64,000 nt of DNA from Terriglobia bacterium (GTDB lineage Bacteria > Acidobacteriota > Terriglobia > 2-12-FULL-54-10): the NCBI GenBank assembly GCA_963666975.2, contig CAXVYR010000003.1, positions 1,280,001-1,344,000 on the forward strand, written 5' to 3'. Numbering within the stretch: position 1 is the first letter of the stretch; each line of letters begins with the position of its first letter. The notes beneath the pieces are model-generated. The model had not been told where the DNA came from. It did not search any database and saw only the letters and a list, made by a program, of their open reading frames with translations. Positions 50,795 to 63,689 of this stretch are shown piece after piece. The translations under genes and the position numbers were made by a program.

Positions 50795-52174
50795 TCAATG
50801 GGCAGCCAAAGAACAGATGGCCGCTGCCAGCGACTCATCCTGCTCCGGAAGGACGGTGCGGAGGTCCAGCAAGACAGCGCCCGATTCTACCCTTACAATC
50901 ACCGGAGGTTGCCAAGACCGCAGGCGGCCTTCCAGCAACGTGGCATTTTCCCCGTCATGCTGCAGGGCTATCAGGCGGGTGGGGAGCGTTTGCCCCGGGG
51001 CCGAGCCGCCTCCAATCACCGATTCGCCGTCCTTCAGCTCCAGACGCAATGGCCCGTTCTGACAGCGCGCACAGGATTCCAGCAATCGCTTGGCGCGGCC
51101 CTCCAGTTCCGAAACCGGAAGATCGATCATCCGAAAGACCGGAATTTGGTGGAGCTGATCTTGCAAATAAGCCAGCAAGGTGGTTTCCAGGACCGCATAA
51201 GTCAGCTTGTCCACCCGCAGCGCCCGAAACAACGGGTTGCGGCGAATTTGCTGGACAAAATCCTTCTTCCCGGCGATCACGCCGGCCTGCGGCCCGCCCA
51301 ACAGCTTGTCACCGCTGAAACTCACCACATCCACACCCGCGGCCAGGCTCATCGCAACGGTGGGTTCCTCGGCAATGCCCCGGGAAGCCAGCGATACCAG
51401 ACAACCGCTGCCCAGGTCTTCAAACACCGGGATTCCGGCTTCCCTGCCCAGATCGACAACCTCATCGAGCGCCGGTTTTTCCGTGAATCCCGTGATCCGG
51501 AAGTTGCTGGGATGCACGCGCAGGAGAAGTTTGGTTTTCTCGCTGAGCGCATTCCGGTAGTCGGCAATGCGCGTGCGGTTGGTGGCGCCCACCTCGCGCA
51601 GCACCGCCCCGCTCTTCCGCATGATGTCCGGGATGCGGAACGCCTCCCCGATTTCAACCAACTCTCCGCGCGATACGATGACCTCGCCGCCCTCGGCCAG
51701 CGTGTTGAGAGTAATCAGCACGGCCGCTGCATTGTTGTTCACTACAATCGCGCCGGGGGCGCCCAGCAACTCTTGCAAGCGCAGGGACACATGCACGTCC
51801 CGCTCTCCTCTGCGGCCGGCAGACAGGTCGTATTCCAGATTGGAGTATTGGGTGGCCACCTCCAGGGCGTGTTCCAGCGCCTCGCGGGCCAGCGGAGCGC
51901 GCCCCAGATTGGTGTGAAGAACAACCCCAGTGGCATTGATGACGGGACGCAGCGAGCAAGCGGCCGCCTGTTCCACGGCCCCGCTGATGCGGGTTTCGAG
52001 AAGCGTCTCCGACAGGGGCTCGGTCCGGGGCCACCGGCCATCGCGGATTTGCTGGCGGAAACCGGCCAGCACCTCCCGCACGCGGACGGTCACAAACTTC
52101 CGTCCCAGTTTTTCTCCCAGCTCCCGGATTACCGGCCGATTCAAGATTTCTTCCACAGCAGGAATCTGCCGCAA
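50795..52174 (-). CDS. selA: L-seryl-tRNA(Sec) selenium transferase (selenocysteine synthase)
   Basis: VINATGVVLHTNLGRAPL, NNNAAA, SRGELVEIG, EDLGSG, FSGDKLLGGPQAG, RALRVDK; frame stays open ~25 codons upstream so start uncertain. Confidence 0.96.
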   Translation of the reverse strand: MRQIPAVEEILNRPVIRELGEKLGRKFVTVRVREVLAGFRQQIRDGRWPRTEPLSETLLETRISGAVEQAAACSLRPVINATGVVLHTNLGRAPLAREALEHALEVATQYSNLEYDLSAGRRGERDVHVSLRLQELLGAPGAIVVNNNAAAVLITLNTLAEGGEVIVSRGELVEIGEAFRIPDIMRKSGAVLREVGATNRTRIADYRNALSEKTKLLLRVHPSNFRITGFTEKPALDEVVDLGREAGIPVFEDLGSGCLVSLASRGIAEEPTVAMSLAAGVDVVSFSGDKLLGGPQAGVIAGKKDFVQQIRRNPLFRALRVDKLTYAVLETTLLAYLQDQLHQIPVFRMIDLPVSELEGRAKRLLESCARCQNGPLRLELKDGESVIGGGSAPGQTLPTRLIALQHDGENATLLEGRLRSWQPPVIVRVESGAVLLDLRTVLPEQDESLAAAICSLAAH

Positions 52175-52850: not shown

Positions 52851-53611
52851 TCACTGAAACACCGACCGAATCTCGCCGGTGATGCGGAGCAACTCCAGCC
52901 GGGCCCTTTCCGTCTGGTATCCCACCTCCAAAAAGTTCAGCCAGCTTTCGTTTTCCGCAAAGCGGGCTTGCTCCAAAACCAGCCGGTTCATTCTGCCCTC
53001 TTCGTACTGCGCCAGCGTCGCGCCCAGCGTACTCCGCGCCAACTCCAGCTCCAGCCGGGCGACTTCCTGAGCCGCTGCTTGCTGCTCCGTCTCGCCCATC
53101 AGTTCCCTGACCTGCCGGGCGATGCCAGCGCGGGCGCTGCTCAGCCGGTAACGGGCGGCGGCCAGTTCCGCTTCCGCCTTGGACAGGCGGGCAGAAAACC
53201 GGGCGCGGTCATACAAAGGCATCACCACGGAAATGCCAAAGGTCGCGTTGTGGCGGGCGAGTTTTTGGAAGAAATCGGAGAAGTTGTTGATGTCGCTAAA
53301 CAAACCGTACTTGCCCACCAGATTCACACGCGGCCAGCGGCTCCCTTGCTCGCTCTGCACCTGGAACTCCCGAGCGCGTACTTGCGCCTCTAGCGACTTG
53401 ATCCCTTCATTGTTGCCGACGGCCTTCTCGACCGCCCCCCTGTCGTCTTGTTTTTGTCTCATCTTCGTTCCTTTCAGTCTCTACGATGAGCCAAAAACAT
53501 CACCTTAACAATTAACCTCTATCTGTCCAACATGCCCTGACGAGGTACACCTGCCACCAGTATGATGAGTGCCAAAAATAGCCCGAGGCGACGAAATTTA
53601 CCAGTTGCCAT
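52851..53611 (-). pseudogene. TolC-family outer membrane efflux protein, interrupted by an IS fragment and internally deleted
   Basis: Signal-peptide start MATGKFRRLGLFLALIILVAG at 53611-53550; OEP-like C-terminal half (WPRVNLVG, FGISVVMPLYD, AQYEEGR) at 52851-53417. Confidence 0.75.
53418..53549 (-). mobile_element. Left-end fragment of the IS3-like element (IRL plus first 15 codons of orfA)
   Basis: Reverse complement near-identical to 61003-61134; begins TGTACCTCGTCAGGGCATGTTGGACA. Confidence 0.9.
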
Positions 53612-56086: not shown

Positions 56087-57805
56087 ATGTTGCAACATCT
56101 GCACATTGAGAATTACGCTCTGATTGAGTCCCTGGACCTGGAGTTCCACCCCGGCTTCAATCTGCTGACGGGGGAAACAGGAAGCGGCAAGTCGATTATC
56201 GTGGACGCCGTGGGGCTGCTTCTGGGCGAAAAGGCGTCGGCGGAGATGATCCGCGGCGGAGCAGACCGGGCGAGGATCTCCGCAGTTTTTTCCTTTTCAC
56301 CATCTCCCGCTTCCGGGCATGCCGAGCACCGCCTCCATCCGCTGAAGCAGCTTCTTGCCGAAGCGGGGCTGGCCAGCCAGGAAAAGGAAGACCTCATCCT
56401 GCAACGAGACCTTTTGCTCGGCGGGAAGTCCCGAGCTTTTGTGAATCATCAGCCTGCCACCGTAGCGATGCTCAAATCTTTGGCTCCTTTTCTGACGGAG
56501 GTCCACGGCCAGAATGAGCAGCAGGAGCTATTTTCCCCGCACGTTCAACTGGAGATGCTCGACCGCTTCGGCGGCCTCGCCGCTCTGGCAGCCACTGTTC
56601 GAGAGCAGTTTAACCTTTGGAAAGACCTCCGTCGCCAGCAGGAAGGCTTGGCTAAGCAGGCGCAAGAGCGGCTGCGGCAGATGGACCTGTGGCAGTTTCA
56701 GAAACGCGAGATCGAACAAGCCGCAATCACTCCCGGCGAAGATCAGCGGTTGGAAGAGGAAAAACTGCTGCTCGCCCATGCAGCGAAGATACAGGCCAGC
56801 CTGGCCGCTTCATTTGATCTGCTTTATGACTCCTCCCACTCCGCTGTCGCCTCCACGGCGTCTGCCAGCAAGAAGCTGGAGGAGGTGCTGCCCTATGACG
56901 CCACCTTGAAACCGCTGGCCGAGGCCTTGCAGTCGGCCCAGGTCTCGCTGGAAGACGTTTCGCTGAGCTTGCGCGACCGATTGTCCGGGATCGAGTCCAA
57001 CCCTCAACGGCTGGAGGAGGTGGAAAACCGGCTTGCCTTGCTGGAACGGCTCAAGAGAAAGTACGGTCCGACGCTGGAGGAGGTGCAAGCTTACGGGGAG
57101 CAGGTGTCGGCGCAAATCCAGGAGACGGAATCGAGCGAGGCGCTCAGCCAATCCCTCGCAGCAAAGCTTGATGAGACCGCGGCTGCTTATCAGAAGAATG
57201 CTGAGGAACTGTCCCGCAGACGGCAGAAGGCTGGCCGGGAACTGAAAGCGGATGTCGAAAAGGAATTGAAGGCGCTGGCCATGAAGGGAACGGTGTTTGA
57301 GGTCCGGTTCACAACCTCGGCCGCCGAAGCGGATTGGCGCGCCTCGGGAATCGACCGGGCCGAATTTCTGATCTCCCCCAACCCCGGAGAGCCGCTCAAG
57401 CCCCTGGCCCGGATCGCCTCCGGCGGGGAGATTTCCCGCACGATGCTGGCGCTGGAAACCGTCCTCGACGCCCGGCGGTGTTCCGGCGGCACAGACCATG
57501 CGCTTATTTTCGACGAGGTGGACGCCGGCATCGGGGGGCGCGCCGCCGAAACGGTGGGCAAAAAGCTGCGGCAGTTGGGGAAACACCGCCAAGTGCTTTG
57601 CGTAACCCATCTGCCACAGATCGCCAGCTTCGCGCATCACCACTTCCGTGTGGAAAAAAGCGAGCGCAACCGGCGGACAACCACCCAGGTCAAATATCTC
57701 GACGGAGAGCAACGCACGGCGGAATTGGCGCGGATGCTGAGCGGCAGCCAGATTACGGATGCCGGAATGAAACATGCGGCACAGTTACTGAAGGCGAATT
57801 CGTAG
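56087..57805 (+). CDS. recN: DNA repair protein RecN
   Basis: MLQHLHIENYALIE, TGETGSGKS, ASGGEISR, FDEVDAGIGG, VTHLPQIA, ELARML. Confidence 0.97.
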   Translation: MLQHLHIENYALIESLDLEFHPGFNLLTGETGSGKSIIVDAVGLLLGEKASAEMIRGGADRARISAVFSFSPSPASGHAEHRLHPLKQLLAEAGLASQEKEDLILQRDLLLGGKSRAFVNHQPATVAMLKSLAPFLTEVHGQNEQQELFSPHVQLEMLDRFGGLAALAATVREQFNLWKDLRRQQEGLAKQAQERLRQMDLWQFQKREIEQAAITPGEDQRLEEEKLLLAHAAKIQASLAASFDLLYDSSHSAVASTASASKKLEEVLPYDATLKPLAEALQSAQVSLEDVSLSLRDRLSGIESNPQRLEEVENRLALLERLKRKYGPTLEEVQAYGEQVSAQIQETESSEALSQSLAAKLDETAAAYQKNAEELSRRRQKAGRELKADVEKELKALAMKGTVFEVRFTTSAAEADWRASGIDRAEFLISPNPGEPLKPLARIASGGEISRTMLALETVLDARRCSGGTDHALIFDEVDAGIGGRAAETVGKKLRQLGKHRQVLCVTHLPQIASFAHHHFRVEKSERNRRTTTQVKYLDGEQRTAELARMLSGSQITDAGMKHAAQLLKANS

Positions 57806-57838
57806 CCCGCCGCAATCTCTCTCCTGAGCGTTCGGGAT

Positions 57839-57927
57839 CCGCTTGCTGAGAGCCTGCCCTGAGCCATGTCCTGAGCAAAGCCGAGGGAGAAGTCGAAGGG
57901 AGCTTGCCGAAGGGCGCGCGGCTCTGA
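57839..57927. repeat. Family B REP with multiply nested CCTGAGC...CGAAGGG mini-repeats
   Basis: CCGCTTGCT[...]CGCGCGGCTCTGA shell enclosing repeated CTGAGC and CGA(A/G)GG units. Confidence 0.7.
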
Positions 57928-57988
57928 CTACACATTCATTGTGAAAGTATAATAGCATTGTGAAAGTGTATTAGAGCCGTTGCCAGCC

Positions 57989-58018
57989 TTGACAGTGGGA
58001 ACCGCCTGTTCGTATAGT
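57989..58018 (+). promoter_or_regulatory. Putative sigma70 promoter of the selenoprotein operon
   Basis: TTGACA (57989-57994), 18-bp spacer containing GAAC-N5-GTTC dyad, TATAGT (58013-58018). Confidence 0.6.
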
Positions 58019-58043
58019 TAAATCGAGGATAGGCAAAACCGTC

Positions 58044-58364
58044 ATGGAATCTAATCCGAAACGCGCAGGCGTTGTGGCCATTGCAGCCGCTCTGCTGGCG
58101 CCCAGTTGATGAGTGCTTCCTCAAGTCCTGGCAGGACTTGGCTTATTGTCGCTGTTGAGCGCCAGCTGCCTGTTCTGGCTGGAACGGTTGCAGCCGGTCT
58201 TCATCACGATGGCGGTGGGCGCGCTGGCCTACGAGGGTTGGCTGGTGCATCGGCGTCCCCGGTTCCTCCGGACACGGGGAATTCTGGCCATCCTTTGGGG
58301 GAGCATCGTCATCAATATATTAGTGCTGGGAGCCTGGGTGGTGCTGTGGTTTCGTTATCGATGA
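58044..58364 (+). CDS. MerT-like heavy-metal transporter, putative selenoprotein with tandem Sec-Sec (TGA TGA at 58107-58112)
   Basis: MESNPKRAGVVAIAAALLAPS-U-U-VLPQVLAGLG...LERLQPVF...three TM segments; UU sits where MerT has ASxCCxxP; hairpin 58122-58140. Confidence 0.82.
58122..58140 (+). promoter_or_regulatory. Candidate bacterial SECIS hairpin
   Basis: CAAGTCCT-GGC-AGGACTTG perfect 8-bp stem, G-containing loop ~18-21 nt after the two UGA codons. Confidence 0.7.
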
Positions 58365-58403
58365 CGGTTTCCAGGATCGGTTTGGTCCACTGAGGAGATG
58401 CAA

Positions 58404-58880
58404 ATGAGCCACGTGAAGTCGCTTTGCCTGCTGTTCCTGCTATCGTTGCTCTCTGCGGTGGCCGCCCCGGCTCAGGTGGAGACGGTTGCGGCGCGGGCCA
58501 GCGGCATCACCTGAGCATCCTGCGCGGTGATCATGGAGATCGCCCTCAGACGCCTGGATGGCGTTGATCAAGTGACAATCAGCATTCAACAGCAGGCCCT
58601 GTCAGTGACCCTGAAACCAGGAAGCAGGTTCGATCCCCAGGGCATCCGGGACGCCGTAGCTCGGGCCGATGTGTCGATTCTCCGCTTCTACGTCGAGGCG
58701 CGCGGACAGGTGGAGCAAAAGGGGGACGAGCGTTACTTCGTCGCCGGCAAAGACCGCTTCCTGCTGGTCGCCTCTCGCGATGTTCCCGCCGGAGAGCCCA
58801 TTTGGGTCAACGCCTTGGTTGACGACAACACCAACCCCCTCCAGATGAGAGTAAACGAACACAAACCGCTCGAGCCATGA
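58404..58880 (+). CDS. Periplasmic MerP/HMA-domain protein, putative selenoprotein (TGA at 58512-58514, UxxC)
   Basis: GAGGAG RBS, signal peptide, then SGIT-U-ASC-AVIMEIALRRLDGVDQVTIS matching the HMA GMTCxxC...ALxxLxGV pattern. Confidence 0.85.
58526..58544 (+). promoter_or_regulatory. Candidate bacterial SECIS hairpin
   Basis: GGTGATC-ATGGA-GATCGCC 7-bp stem (one G-U pair) starting 11 nt after the UGA; lower stem CATCC/GGATG. Confidence 0.65.
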
Positions 58881-59323
58881 GCGCCTCCGCACAAAGCGAC
58901 AAGTCAGAATCCGCACGATATGCCGGACTGTTCCGGAGTCCTGTCCTAGACCACTTTCACCATCCGCGTAATGTCGGTGTCGCCGCCGGACACAACCAGT
59001 CCTTTCTGGAGCAAGACAACCCGTGGCAGGTCCGGTTGCGATTCACCCTGCGTGTGGAGCAAGACGGCATCGCGGAGGTAAAGTTCCAGGCGCAAAGTTG
59101 CGTCACCACCACGGCCTCGGCCAGCGCGCTGACCGTGATGGCCCAGGGAAAACGTGTGGAGGAGGCGTTGGCCATCACTCCCGAACAGCTTTCGAGGGAG
59201 CTGGGAACGGTTCCCCCCGAAAAGATGTACTGCTGCCAACTGGCCGTGGCAACGCTTCAGAAAGCTTTGCGGTCGCCGGAACAGGCCAGTTCCGAGACGC
59301 CCGCAGAGGTGAACAAGGAGTGA
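58877..59323 (+). CDS. IscU/NifU N-terminal-like scaffold protein, atypical
   Basis: VLDHFHHPRNVG, KFQAQSC, ASASALT, GKRVEEA, PPEKMYCC; ATGA overlap with upstream gene. Confidence 0.88.
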   Translation: MSASAQSDKSESARYAGLFRSPVLDHFHHPRNVGVAAGHNQSFLEQDNPWQVRLRFTLRVEQDGIAEVKFQAQSCVTTTASASALTVMAQGKRVEEALAITPEQLSRELGTVPPEKMYCCQLAVATLQKALRSPEQASSETPAEVNKE

Positions 59324-59517
59324 TTACTGCGGAACAAATCGGCGGCATGACGGTCCTCGATGCGCTGGACCTGTCACCGGAGGTGCGGCGCTACCTGCTG
59401 CGCCGGCTTCCCGAGATATGATGCTGGCCGGGGGAAACCCTCGAAGCGGTCGCTTTGAAAAAGAAGATGGACCTGGACGCGCTGGTCCGCATGATTCAGA
59501 CCATCCTCGCTAAATAG
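59320..59517 (+). CDS. Small DUF1858/ScdA_N-like protein, putative selenoprotein (TGA at 59419-59421, U-C)
   Basis: GTGA overlap; MITAEQIGGMTVLDALDLSPEVRRYLLRRLPEI-U-C-WPGETLEAVALKKKMDLDALVRMIQTILAK; family-like pattern on both sides of the TGA. Confidence 0.75.
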
Positions 59518-61002: not shown

Positions 61003-62652
61003 TGTGCCCCGTCAGGGCTTGTTGGACAGGTAGAGGGTAATAGTTAAGGTGATGTTTTTGGCTCATCGTAGAGACTGAAAGGAACGAAGATGAGACAAAA
61101 ACAAGACGACAGGGGGGCGGTCGAGAAGGCCGTCCGGGAGATCAAACGCAGGACGCGGCGCAGGTTCAGCCCGGAAGACAAAATCCGCATTGTATTGCAG
61201 GGACTTCGCGGCGAGGACAGCATCGCGGAGCTGTGCCGCCGCGAGGGGCTGCACCAGAACCAGTATTACCGCTGGAGCAAGGAGTTTCTGGAGGCTGGCC
61301 GCAAGCGGCTGGCGGGCGACATAGACCGTGAGGCAACCAGTGGCGAAGTCAAGACTCTGCGGGAGCAGGCCGTACAGCTCATCTCGCTTGCCGTAGATAC
61401 CGTGTCCCGGCACCTCCAAAAACGAGCTGAAAGAGGCCCTGGCCGAGGCTATGCTGGAAAATCGCCTGCTAAAAAAAAGCGTGATCGGGGATGGGGAGGA
61501 ACATACATGAGATACCCTGCCTCGGAGAAGCTGGAGATCATGCTGGAAAATCGCCTGCTAAAAAAAAGCGTGATCGGGGATGGGGAGGAACATACATGAG
61601 ATACCCTGCCTCGGAGAAGCTGGAGATCATCTGCACGGTGGAGCAATCTGCCCTGGGGGTGCGCCGGACGCTGCAGCAGGTTGGCATTCCCAGATCGACG
61701 TTTTACAACTGGTACGACCGCTATGTGTCGGAAGGCTTTGATGGGCTGGAAGACAAAAAACCCGATCCTGGCCCTGTCTGGAACAAGGTGCCGGAGGAGA
61801 TAACTCAGCAGTTGGTGACGTTAGCCCTGGCCGAGCCCGATCTGTCGTCACGCGAGCTGGCGGTGCGTTTTACCGAGGAAAGGCGGTATTACCTTTCTGA
61901 ATCGACGGTTTACCGCGTCCTGAAAAGCCATGACCTGATTACCGCGCCAGCCTTTATTGTCCTGAAAGCGGCGGAACGGTTCGCCAACCCGACCACGGCG
62001 GTCAACCAGCTCTGGCAGACCGACTTCACCTACCTGAAAGTCATCGGTTGGGGCTGGTTCTACCTGTCCACGGTGCTGGACGACTTCTCGCGCTATATCA
62101 TCGCCTGGCGGCTGTGCAAAACCATGAGCGCAAGTGACGTCTCGGCCACGTTGCGGGATGCTTTGCAAGCCACCGGCCTCGACCGCGTGGGCGCCCGGCA
62201 CAGACCTCGCCTCCTGAGCGACAACGGGCCGTGCTACGTCTCTTCCGAACTGCAATCATGGCTGGCAGAAAACAGCGTGCCGCATACTCGCGGCAAGCCC
62301 TATCACCCCATGACGCAGGGCAAGATCGAACGCTGGCACCGAACTCTGAAAGACCGCATCCTGCTCAACAACTATTACCTGCCAGAAGAGCTGGAGCGGC
62401 AGATCGATGCCTTCGTCAACCACTACAACACCAACCGATACCATGAAAGCCTGAACAACCTGACACCGTATGACGTTTTTACAGGCCAAGGCAGTGCCAT
62501 CCTGCAAAAACGGGATCGCATCAAAGAGAAAACTATGATCTTAAGAAAACGGTTGCACTTCAAAAGAAGGGCAGCCTAACATCAACCCAGAGGAGCCTGA
62601 ACGCCACCTTATCTTTTTATGCTCTGTGTCCAACATTATCTGACGACGTACA
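61003..62652 (+). mobile_element. IS3-family-like insertion sequence with 9-bp target duplication; orfA disrupted
   Basis: IRL TGTGCCCCGTCAGGGCTTGTTGGACA, IRR TGTCCAACATTATCTGACGACGTACA, ATTCCCGGT at 60994-61002 and 62653-62661; orfA HTH from 61090, A8G slippery site, orfB DDE integrase. Confidence 0.92.
61596..62579 (+). CDS. IS transposase OrfB (rve integrase core)
   Basis: WQTDFTY, LDDFSR, LSDNG, HPMTQGKIERWH. Confidence 0.9.
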   Translation: MRYPASEKLEIICTVEQSALGVRRTLQQVGIPRSTFYNWYDRYVSEGFDGLEDKKPDPGPVWNKVPEEITQQLVTLALAEPDLSSRELAVRFTEERRYYLSESTVYRVLKSHDLITAPAFIVLKAAERFANPTTAVNQLWQTDFTYLKVIGWGWFYLSTVLDDFSRYIIAWRLCKTMSASDVSATLRDALQATGLDRVGARHRPRLLSDNGPCYVSSELQSWLAENSVPHTRGKPYHPMTQGKIERWHRTLKDRILLNNYYLPEELERQIDAFVNHYNTNRYHESLNNLTPYDVFTGQGSAILQKRDRIKEKTMILRKRLHFKRRAA

Positions 62653-62945: not shown

Positions 62946-62970
62946 GGCGCTCCATCACTGTCGCGGCTCG

Positions 62971-63062
62971 GATTGCGTCTCGCCTTGTTCCGTATAAAGC
63001 AAAAAGCCCAACCCCGGATTGCGTCTCGCCTTGTTCCGTATAAAGCAAAAAGCCCAACCCCC
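62971..63062. repeat. 46-bp tandem duplication
   Basis: GATTGCGTCTCGCCTTGTTCCGTATAAAGCAAAAAGCCCAACCCC repeated at 62971 and 63017. Confidence 0.9.
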
Positions 63063-63087
63063 GATTGCGGATTGGGCTTTGTTTTTA

Positions 63088-63148
63088 ATCCCGGCAACGA
63101 CCTGCTCTCCCACACCGTTGCCAGCGCGGTATCATCGGCCCTGGAAGG
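63088..63148 (-). pseudogene. Duplicated 3' half of 5S rRNA
   Basis: 63078-63138 matches 63561-63621 with 3 mismatches. Confidence 0.85.
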
Positions 63149-63157
63149 CAGGCTGCC

Positions 63158-63370
63158 TCACGCAAACACTAGACGACCCTTGGGCTGGGGGATGGGGCGG
63201 CCGAGTTCTTTGGCGGTCTCGATCCACTCTCGGATGACGACCTCGACGTTCTGAAGCGCCTCCCGGCGTGACTTCCCATCCGCGGCACAGCCTGGCAGTT
63301 CGGGCACTTCGGCGATGAACGCGTTGTCCTCCGCGCTCCAGTAGATAATGACCTCGTACTTAGGACTCAA
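63158..63370 (-). CDS. hicB: HicB family antitoxin
   Basis: YEVIIYWSAEDNAFIAEVPELPGCAADG..EAL...WIETAKELGRPIPQP. Confidence 0.92.
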   Translation of the reverse strand: MSPKYEVIIYWSAEDNAFIAEVPELPGCAADGKSRREALQNVEVVIREWIETAKELGRPIPQPKGRLVFA

Positions 63371-63462
63371 TTTTCCCTCCCAAACCGACGCAATCCTTCA
63401 AAGGAAATATTGGCGTCTGAAGTTCCCCGAAGAACATGTTCAAGAATTTTGCTCGGATGCAC
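63367..63462 (-). pseudogene. HicA toxin remnant (internal deletion)
   Basis: MHPSKILEHVLRGTSDANISFEGLRRFGREN*; HicA-like N-terminus without the GSH core; stop overlaps hicB start. Confidence 0.65.
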
Positions 63463-63535
63463 CACAGGACGGAGCTTACTCTAACACCCGAAAACTGTAC
63501 AACAGAAACTGTCCTTCAGAAACCCACCAAAAGCA

Positions 63536-63563
63536 AAACGGGCTCAGAAAACTGAGCCCGTTT
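63536..63563 (-). terminator. Intrinsic terminator after 5S rRNA
   Basis: AAACGGGCTCAG-AAAA-CTGAGCCCGTTT hairpin followed by T-rich run on the minus strand. Confidence 0.8.
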
Positions 63564-63572
63564 GTTTTTAAT

Positions 63573-63689
63573 CCCGGCAACGACCTACTCTCCCACACCG
63601 TTGCCAGCGCAGTACCATCGGAGCTGAGGGGCTTAACTGCCGTGTTCGGGATGGGAACGGGTGTGACCCCCTCGCTAAAGTCACCGAGA
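63573..63689 (-). rRNA. rrf: 5S ribosomal RNA
   Basis: Reverse complement contains CACACCCGTTCCCATCCCGAACACGGCAGTTAAGCCC...GATGGTACT...GGGAGAGTAGGTCGTTGCCG. Confidence 0.97.

Follow-up and report, generated by a model that had tools for sequence, protein, structure and literature searches.

Selenocysteine (Sec) insertion in bacteria is understood to rely on one selenocysteine insertion sequence (SECIS) hairpin for one UGA codon, the distance between the two being short and fixed. MerT-related selenoproteins are already known, as the accessible parts of two sources describe (PMC9312934, PMC2398784). An annotated member of the family, the 'putative mercuric transport protein' ABB16073.1, carries a C/SxxU motif with one Sec (PMC13188914, Table 1), and a CU-motif MerT group, exemplified by WP_250634603.1, is presented in the available portion of a preprint (bioRxiv 10.1101/2022.07.06.499078, Haft 2022). 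In a table from 2026 that covers 119 families and subfamilies of prokaryotic selenoproteins, UxxU, CU and UxxxxU motifs are present and UU is not (PMC13188914). The accessible text on the algal protein PDI_e, with its GUGUU motif, reports it as the first selenoprotein in which two Sec residues stand side by side (PMC7539508), and that on E. coli fdhF gives its minimal SECIS as a 17-nt stem-loop located 11 nt after the UGA (PMC8659212). Here we analysed a stretch of 64,000 nt from a Terriglobia bacterium (assembly GCA_963666975.2, contig CAXVYR010000003.1, positions 1,280,001 to 1,344,000 of the forward strand), hereafter the window, which carries at 58044-58364 a MerT-like gene interrupted by two consecutive in-frame UGA codons. 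Coordinates are those of the window, and features lie on its forward strand unless the reverse strand is named. We propose, with a probability of about 0.75, that the gene encodes a MerT-like selenoprotein with vicinal Sec-Sec, both UGA codons of which would be decoded through a single SECIS-like hairpin, and that this protein would work with a MerP-like partner. Read-through of both codons is pointed to by the invariance of the TGA pair, by colinear Cys-Cys homologues, by the fit of the hairpin to the bacterial SECIS (bSECIS) model and by nearby Sec genes.

The gene, defined by open reading frame (ORF) reading, by Pfam and NCBIfam comparison and by 42 related loci, spans 106 codons and a stop. 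As read in the initial annotation, and borne out by the sequence, ATG (58044-58046) opens 21 sense codons (M1-S21) that lead to TGA (58107-58109) and again TGA (58110-58112), the proposed Sec22-Sec23, after which 83 sense codons (V24-R106) run to the stop TGA at 58362-58364. Elsewhere in the genomes with this gene UGA acts as a normal stop; the MerT-like gene and the MerP-like gene of the window both terminate in TGA. A promoter-like site, TTGACA-18-TATAGT, lies at 57989-58018, about 25 nt 5' of the start codon, with 11 of 12 consensus matches (a consensus match only), and GAGGA is found at 58025-58029, upstream of ATG 58044. A similar TTGACA...TATAGT arrangement, judged by eye, precedes the ATG in seven of the related loci (L001, L002, L003, L013, L018, L019 and L039). 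Further upstream in the window, a 12-nt direct repeat, CATTGTGAAAGT, occurs twice (57937-57948 and 57956-57967) on the two sides of TATAAT (57948-57953) and looks operator-like; when the 220 nt ahead of the start codon were scanned for repeats, it was seen neither in L001, the protein of which is 93% identical, nor in any of the other loci.

The 42 related loci came from one scan of a species-representative genome collection with amino-acid patterns, one of which spans the peptide encoded by the hairpin; the patterns are degenerate at synonymous sites, and the protein searches described below are free of that bias. All 42 are metagenome-assembled genomes, 37 of them labelled Acidobacteriota (Terriglobia, Bryobacteraceae, Solibacteraceae, Vicinamibacterales, Luteitalea) and the other five Armatimonadota, Binatia, Deltaproteobacteria, Verrucomicrobiia and Clostridia, labels which may be binning errors. 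TGA TGA occupies the same two codons in 43 of 43 sequences (the 42 loci and the window; 42 distinct). Among the 41 sequences with 82 or 83 codons after the UGA pair, the true stop of the gene was TAA in 18, TGA in 15 and TAG in 8; terminating stops drift in this way among the three codons, and the tandem pair never does. The feature is not due to chance. The counts of stop codons and of full-length genes do not include two loci, L040 and L041. Their frames after the tandem UGA extend over 119 and 146 codons, compared with 82 or 83 elsewhere, tblastn covers the query only partly, and frameshift errors in the assemblies are probably responsible.

According to the criteria of the field for bacterial selenoprotein genes, as given in the accessible portions of PMC13188914 (section 5) and PMC2398784 (methods), such a gene shows conserved coding sequence on both flanks of the in-frame UGA and Cys homologues at its position. 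The first of these features was found throughout the 43 sequences. Mean entropy at codon positions 1, 2 and 3 was 0.79, 0.39 and 1.51 bit in upstream codons -18 to -1 and 0.92, 0.64 and 1.35 bit in the downstream codons. The upstream peptide, DPKRAG-hydrophobic-AALLxPS, is conserved, in frame, without indels and at a constant distance to the UGA codons, and these patterns indicate that the 21 upstream codons evolve as coding sequence.

We then compared the protein with the MerT superfamily, writing C in place of U for Pfam and NCBIfam scoring. Pfam MerT (PF02411) matched residues 4-71 with 22.9 bits, under its gathering score of 32.9; the best NCBIfam model, merT_RC607, reached 26.5 bits for a cut-off of 130, a trace of similarity to NF045683 ('MerT/CopZ fusion-like heavy metal transport selenoprotein') was also present, and every MerT or selenoprotein model of NCBIfam release 20 left the protein under its cut-off. 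Judged by these curated cut-offs, the protein is a distant MerT relative and not a family member. An exhaustive search of 1.84 billion representatives with a profile built from 38 full-length sequences (alignment A3) gave 84 matches at E <= 1e-3, of which 20 were retrieved and 12 of those aligned. Two full-length close relatives have a real Cys-Cys pair, P0123 (E 3e-25) and P0125 (E 1e-23), both with one extra residue after the CC, and at the place of the hairpin-encoded peptide of the UU clade they have another peptide, which varies; more distant matches pass the Pfam MerT threshold (among them P0159, 84.3 bits; P0156, 76.8; P0161, 70.3). The columns that do not vary in the joint alignment (A4) are M1, both UGA positions, P26, P51 and L61, and UU-V-L-P aligns with CC-I-L-P, C22, C23 and P26 being invariant. 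These columns place the two UGA codons at the site of the MerT helix-1 Cys-Cys dyad that is followed by xxP. Cys homologues at the UGA positions are thus provided by P0123, P0125 and the Pfam-positive MerT proteins, and a vicinal dyad followed by xxP stands in the first transmembrane helix, as in MerT. The initial annotation had asked for an alignment to MerT and for variants of the dyad, and had made its reading depend on a MerT-like N-terminal part: the dyad is UU in all 43 sequences and CC in P0123, P0125 and the Pfam-positive proteins, and the MerT likeness of the N-terminal part holds, both by the Pfam match and by the column shared with the Cys-Cys pair.

The MerT proteins of Tn501/Tn21 carry another pair of Cys residues in the cytoplasmic loop that joins helices 2 and 3. 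No Cys was found in this loop in the 38-sequence alignment (HRRPRFLRTRG in the window), where C42, the only other invariant Cys, is private to the family. An AlphaFold2 model built with the 38 sequences, used for the helix count only, places helices at residues 5-29, 36-70 and 78-105. Among the matches of the profile search, the 61-residue protein P0145 begins with the family N-terminus, ends with the helix-2 region and has in place of the UGA region a different peptide with two CC pairs, which the -1 frame of the family DNA would give; contig indels are the likely cause.

A word-indexed search of a large protein set returned 156 matches at E <= 1e-3 among 253 candidates. Exactly 83 aa was the length of 115 of the best 120 of these 156 homologues, and the 23 short homologues that were aligned all start at the codon after the second UGA ([M/V]-LPQVLAGLG), so gene callers cut the family at the same place everywhere and annotation pipelines miss the metal-binding first helix. 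The five NCBI-named entries among the best 120 are all 83-aa 'hypothetical protein'. One entry of 106 aa, P0003, shows WW at the two UGA positions having been called with a genetic code in which TGA stands for Trp.

The SECIS-like hairpin, CAAGTCCT-GGC-AGGACTTG, was identified at 58122-58140 by folding, pairing alignment and synonymous-site conservation. It has a perfect 8-bp stem and a GGC loop (58130-58132); UGA1 and UGA2, both upstream, are separated from the foot of the stem by 12 and 9 nt and from the first loop base by 20 and 17 nt, respectively. Both the perfect 8-bp hairpin of the initial annotation and its loop distances of 21 and 18 nt agree with this, the latter being the same distances counted inclusively. 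The published bSECIS model allows a loop of 3-9 nt, a stem of 4-16 bp, a UGA-to-loop distance of 16-37 nt and an MFE (minimum free energy) of at most -7.5 kcal/mol, with a loop pattern N1-G-[G|U]-N-N2 and G in the first two loop positions (PMC13188914). In a comparison made by hand with these constraints, the hairpin satisfied all of them for both UGA codons (loop 3 nt, stem 8 bp, U-GGC-A, 20 and 17 nt, -9.2 kcal/mol). The use of one SECIS for two UGA codons had been called mechanistically unusual; unusual it would be, but not outside the known range, as the consensus accepts UGA-to-loop distances of 16-37 nt.

The isolated hairpin, at -9.2 kcal/mol, has a z-score of -3.6, none of 200 shuffles being as stable. 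In context it was no more stable than shuffles, with z = -0.12 over 71 nt and z = -0.59 over 39 nt; thermodynamics alone are insufficient for the SECIS case, which is carried by the comparative data. For these we used an alignment (A2) of 42 rows, the window and 41 loci, L042 being omitted for too little sequence upstream of its UGA codons. In its 40 distinct rows, 320 of 320 cells of the stem were paired; six of the eight pairs are invariant and two vary on one side and stay paired (A-U to G.U in two rows, U-A to U.G in one), and the loop is GGC in 40 and GGU in 2 of the 42 rows. The third-position entropy of the six hairpin codons (Q-V-L-A-G-L) was 0.08 bit in the 40 distinct sequences, compared with the 1.51 bit upstream and 1.35 bit downstream given above. 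Codon bias does not explain this freeze, because outside the hairpin these genes seldom use four of the six codons: CAA accounts for 17 of 107 Gln (0.16), GCA for 52 of 438 Ala (0.12), GGA for 83 of 284 Gly (0.29) and CTT for 81 of 728 Leu (0.11). Per sequence, the six codons have a joint probability of about 8e-5, given the peptide. In the absence of covariation, it is extreme purifying selection at synonymous sites that carries the hairpin case. A search of Rfam gave no match in 57500-59500 at E <= 1. At the fourth codon after the tandem UGA (58119-58121), Pro is encoded by CCG in 27 and CCT in 15 of the 42 distinct sequences and never by CCC or CCA, and all four Pro codons are in use two codons before the UGA pair. 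This restriction may reflect a further constraint at the base of the hairpin, where CCT gives a ninth, U.G pair.

The MerP-like gene lies directly downstream, at 58404-58880 (alternative start ATG 58398), and was recognised by Pfam, NCBIfam and tblastn. It encodes an HMA-domain protein, with a signal peptide judged by eye, that looks secreted, with an in-frame UGA at 58512-58514 (U37) in the motif G-I-T-U-A-S-C and, at the C-terminus, a domain of about 60 residues that matches no family. It scored 22.5 bits with HMA (gathering score 24.8), 37.8 with MerP TIGR02052 (cut-off 92.55) and 41.4 with NF041115 (cut-off 95), its best NCBIfam match. By tblastn a homologue stands directly 3' of the MerT-like gene in 41 of the 42 loci, with none at L007. 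The motif could be scored in 39 of the 43 sequences, where it takes the forms G-I-T-U-x-x-C or G-I-S-C-x-x-C, 17 being UxxC and 22 CxxC, a switching that is the classical Sec/Cys alternation of genuine selenoprotein families. A hairpin, GGUGAUC-AUGGA-GAUCGCC (58526-58544), with a 7-bp stem, lies 11 nt after the partner UGA; this AUGGA-loop hairpin is present in the 17 U forms and occurs only in them, and the mean MFE over 63 nt was -26.4 kcal/mol in the 17 U forms and -19.0 in the 22 C forms. An operon with this second selenoprotein gene, independent of the first and more conventional, makes Sec decoding of the MerT-like gene more credible.

We also looked for the Sec machinery. The gene selA, for selenocysteine synthase, is located at 50795-52174 on the reverse strand (TIGR00474, 563.7 bits for a cut-off of 267.9; Pfam SelA, 465.7 bits), 6 kb from the MerT-like gene, which suggests that the organism has Sec machinery. 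No tRNA gene was detected in the 64-kb window. At L014 (1-7298) a selA fragment is followed by the MerT-like/MerP-like pair and then by selB (344.8 bits) and selD (360.2 bits), and at L041 (1838-6657) a tRNA-SeC lies upstream of the pair with DUF169 and selA downstream. The selD ORF of L014 begins at model position 33, which may place its beginning ahead of an in-frame UGA.

Taken together, these data suggest a 106-residue, three-helix membrane protein of the MerT superfamily in which adjacent selenocysteines would replace the helix-1 Cys-Cys dyad. With UGA1 in the A site and the stem 12 nt downstream, SelB-GTP-Sec-tRNA would bind the hairpin at 58122-58140 and UGA1 would be decoded. Peptide bond formation and one translocation would then bring UGA2 into the A site, the hairpin being still folded and 3 nt nearer, with its stem 9 nt downstream, and the hairpin would present a second ternary complex for UGA2, either by binding a new SelB or through the resident SelB, reloaded with GTP and Sec-tRNA. 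The registers of 12 and 9 nt bracket the 11-nt spacing of fdhF, so the same folded hairpin can plausibly present a second SelB complex. The periplasmic U/CxxC protein would pass an ion of a soft metal or metalloid to Sec22-Sec23, near the outer end of helix 1. The substrate class, Hg(II)/Cu(I)/Ag(I)/Cd(II), is taken by default from homology. We infer Sec insertion at both codons, the re-use of the hairpin, the direction of transport and the substrate from sequence data, and 'diselenide metal site' and 'transporter' are used as presumptive labels.

Several observations weigh against this proposal. Two successive SelB deliveries would multiply two inefficient events, if the efficiencies are like those of E. 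coli. None of the eight stem pairs showed a compensatory double change in alignment A2, because the stem hardly varies, and its invariance could in principle reflect another constraint at the RNA or DNA level. The apparent absence of the hairpin from the CC sister group is judged from peptide sequence only, and relatives with a different sequence at the hairpin peptide may be under-sampled, given the pattern-based finding of loci. The protein stays under the Pfam and NCBIfam MerT thresholds, its AlphaFold2 model is poor (predicted local distance difference test, pLDDT, 63.7; predicted template modelling score, pTM, 0.38), and selA is the only Sec gene seen in the window.

Other readings of the same locus have to be considered. 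Read-through might occur without Sec-Sec, by near-cognate insertion of Trp or Cys at one or both UGA codons or by a ribosome hop, and give CU-like, UC-like or non-selenium products. The known MerT selenoproteins carry one Sec (CU motif; C/SxxU), as far as the accessible sources describe them, and our searches of the literature on tandem or consecutive UGA or Sec in bacteria gave no UU precedent, only the algal PDI_e, subscription journals lying outside their scope so that a prior description is possible. We nevertheless regard such products as unlikely: the two codons are equally invariant; if one Sec sufficed, TGY would be expected at the other codon in some lineage, as happens in the partner (22 CxxC and 17 UxxC); the hairpin is inside the published spacing range for both codons; and the colinear CC homologues speak against hopping. 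Another possibility is that the vicinal Sec-Sec is real and the pair is not a mercury system but a dedicated route by which the Sec pathway is supplied from the periplasm with selenium or with a metalloid bound to selenium, the dyad perhaps carrying Se as a triselenide-type adduct. The location of the pair inside a Sec-machinery cluster in one sub-clade (L014, L041), its proximity to selA in the window and the lack of merA or merR among 150 flanking ORFs of the 42 loci are in favour of this route, to which we give a slim chance.

The locus could also yield two products, a 21-codon upstream ORF closed by a double stop and a functional 83-residue protein begun at GTG 58113 by re-initiation or from an independent start, with some other role for the hairpin. 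This is the choice of the gene callers for 115 of the best 120 of 156 homologues, and the codon after the UGA pair is indeed GTG (34) or ATG (3) in 37 of the 42 loci; in the other five it is CTG (3), GTC (1) or GTA (1), so that there is no ordinary start there in five genomes. Were the pair a double stop, nothing would keep it from changing to TAA or TAG in the manner of the true stop, yet it remains TGA TGA in all 43 sequences; the upstream peptide shows homology to MerT helix 1 and lines up colinearly with the single-chain CC homologues, and the 83-aa protein would be without the metal-binding helix. No Shine-Dalgarno-like sequence precedes GTG 58113 in the window, and the promoter-like site and GAGGA ahead of ATG 58044 favour a start there; a start at GTG 58113 only, the case held in the initial annotation to overturn its reading, is unlikely in view of the five non-start codons and the protein-level conservation of the upstream codons, and the probability of two products is in our opinion small. 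It is very improbable that the upstream ORF is a regulatory device, a leader peptide followed by the hairpin as transcription terminator or attenuator. A simple scan does flag the hairpin as terminator-like in the window, with the tail CTTATTGTCG, but many loci (L005, L006, L014 and L032 among them) have no T-rich tail, the same frame continues past the hairpin as a conserved protein, and the hairpin-encoded peptide LPQVLAGLG belongs to a conserved helix. For a pseudogene or a sequencing artefact speak only the two in-frame stops of a single sequence, and this explanation, already refuted by the occurrence of the same feature in 42 independent assemblies from several laboratories and sequencing technologies and by purifying selection on both flanks of the UGA codons, retains a practically negligible probability.

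Concerning the surroundings, a NifU/IscU-like gene (58877-59323; Pfam NifU_N, 84.4 bits) overlaps the stop of the MerP-like gene. By tblastn a NifU-like gene is next to the pair in 4 of the 42 loci (L001, L002, L005 and L013) and is no constant partner. Pfam analysis of the 150 flanking ORFs of the 42 loci (two upstream and two downstream each, within about 2.2 kb) revealed no constant third gene and no domain of the merA or merR type. The rest of the window is ordinary chromosomal sequence, with IleRS, recN, TonB and others. A crude script for further selenoprotein genes in the window listed five candidates, the best of which (TGA 2580) was dropped since the translation of its frame was not protein-like; the filters of the script shut out tandem UGA codons and the AUGGA loop, hence neither gene of interest was found again. 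An inverted repeat of 132 nt, 95% complementary (53418-53549 and 61003-61134, arms 7453 nt apart), encloses a short-chain fatty acid (SCFA)-type transporter gene, recN, the MerT/MerP/NifU genes and a Uma2 endonuclease gene. Its right arm continues into an insertion sequence with an rve transposase (61491-62579), which holds an exact 89-nt tandem duplication at 61451-61628. Near the end of the window, repeats among short ORFs (62969-63060 and 63078-63626) include an exact 46-nt tandem duplication and a 66-nt repeat, 92% identical, with copies 483 nt apart.

A natural and widespread gene with two UGA codons and one invariant hairpin offers a ready-made test of the spacing freedom of SelB, SECIS and ribosome, of the re-use of the hairpin, and perhaps of the resident SelB, after a single translocation, and of how the competition of release factors is beaten twice running. 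If the Sec-Sec proposal is true, the protein would have the first natural vicinal diselenol/diselenide site in a membrane protein, relevant to the chemistry of soft metals (Hg, Cu, Ag, Cd) and to selenium trafficking in soil Acidobacteria; if the pair serves as a selenium route, it would provide the first bacterial tandem-UGA selenoprotein together with a new component of selenium uptake.

The MerT family type and Sec decoding are both known, and what appears not to have been described yet for bacteria is an invariant tandem UGA with a single hairpin. Canonical MerT/MerP (PF02411, TIGR02052) share with the window pair the three helices, the vicinal chalcogen dyad followed by xxP in helix 1 and the adjacent gene for a secreted HMA protein with an xxC-type motif. 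They differ in that the window proteins are below both curated thresholds, that the MerT-like protein has no second Cys pair in the helix 2-3 loop (RRPxFLRT) and an invariant Cys42 of its own, and that the MerP-like partner has the extra C-terminal domain; unlike the canonical mer operons, the loci had no merA or merR among the flanking ORFs scanned. NF045683 and NF041115 (UxxU metal-binding (seleno)protein) combine the same MerT-like and HMA modules with Sec in metal sites, whereas the former is a fusion and the window has two genes (13.7 and 27.7 bits for a cut-off of 375), and the latter has UxxU where the partner family has UxxC or CxxC, its score being, as given above, well under that cut-off of 95. 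ABB16073.1 and the CU MerT group, compared by description and as far as the accessible sources go, are likewise small MerT-like membrane proteins with Sec for a Cys of the metal motif and an in-frame UGA followed by a downstream hairpin, with one Sec there, whereas here UGA stands at both codons of the helix-1 dyad in all 43 sequences. The algal PDI_e, in the available text, also has two adjacent UGA codons that are both taken as Sec, but it is eukaryotic and of an unrelated family, and its SECIS in the 3' untranslated region acts at a distance, so that no positional problem arises. Closest in layout to the window hairpin is the fdhF SECIS, which, from the accessible description, is also a hairpin within the coding sequence right after the UGA with a G in the loop; the window hairpin differs from it by having no bulged U, a GGC triloop and two registers, 12 and 9 nt, in place of one.

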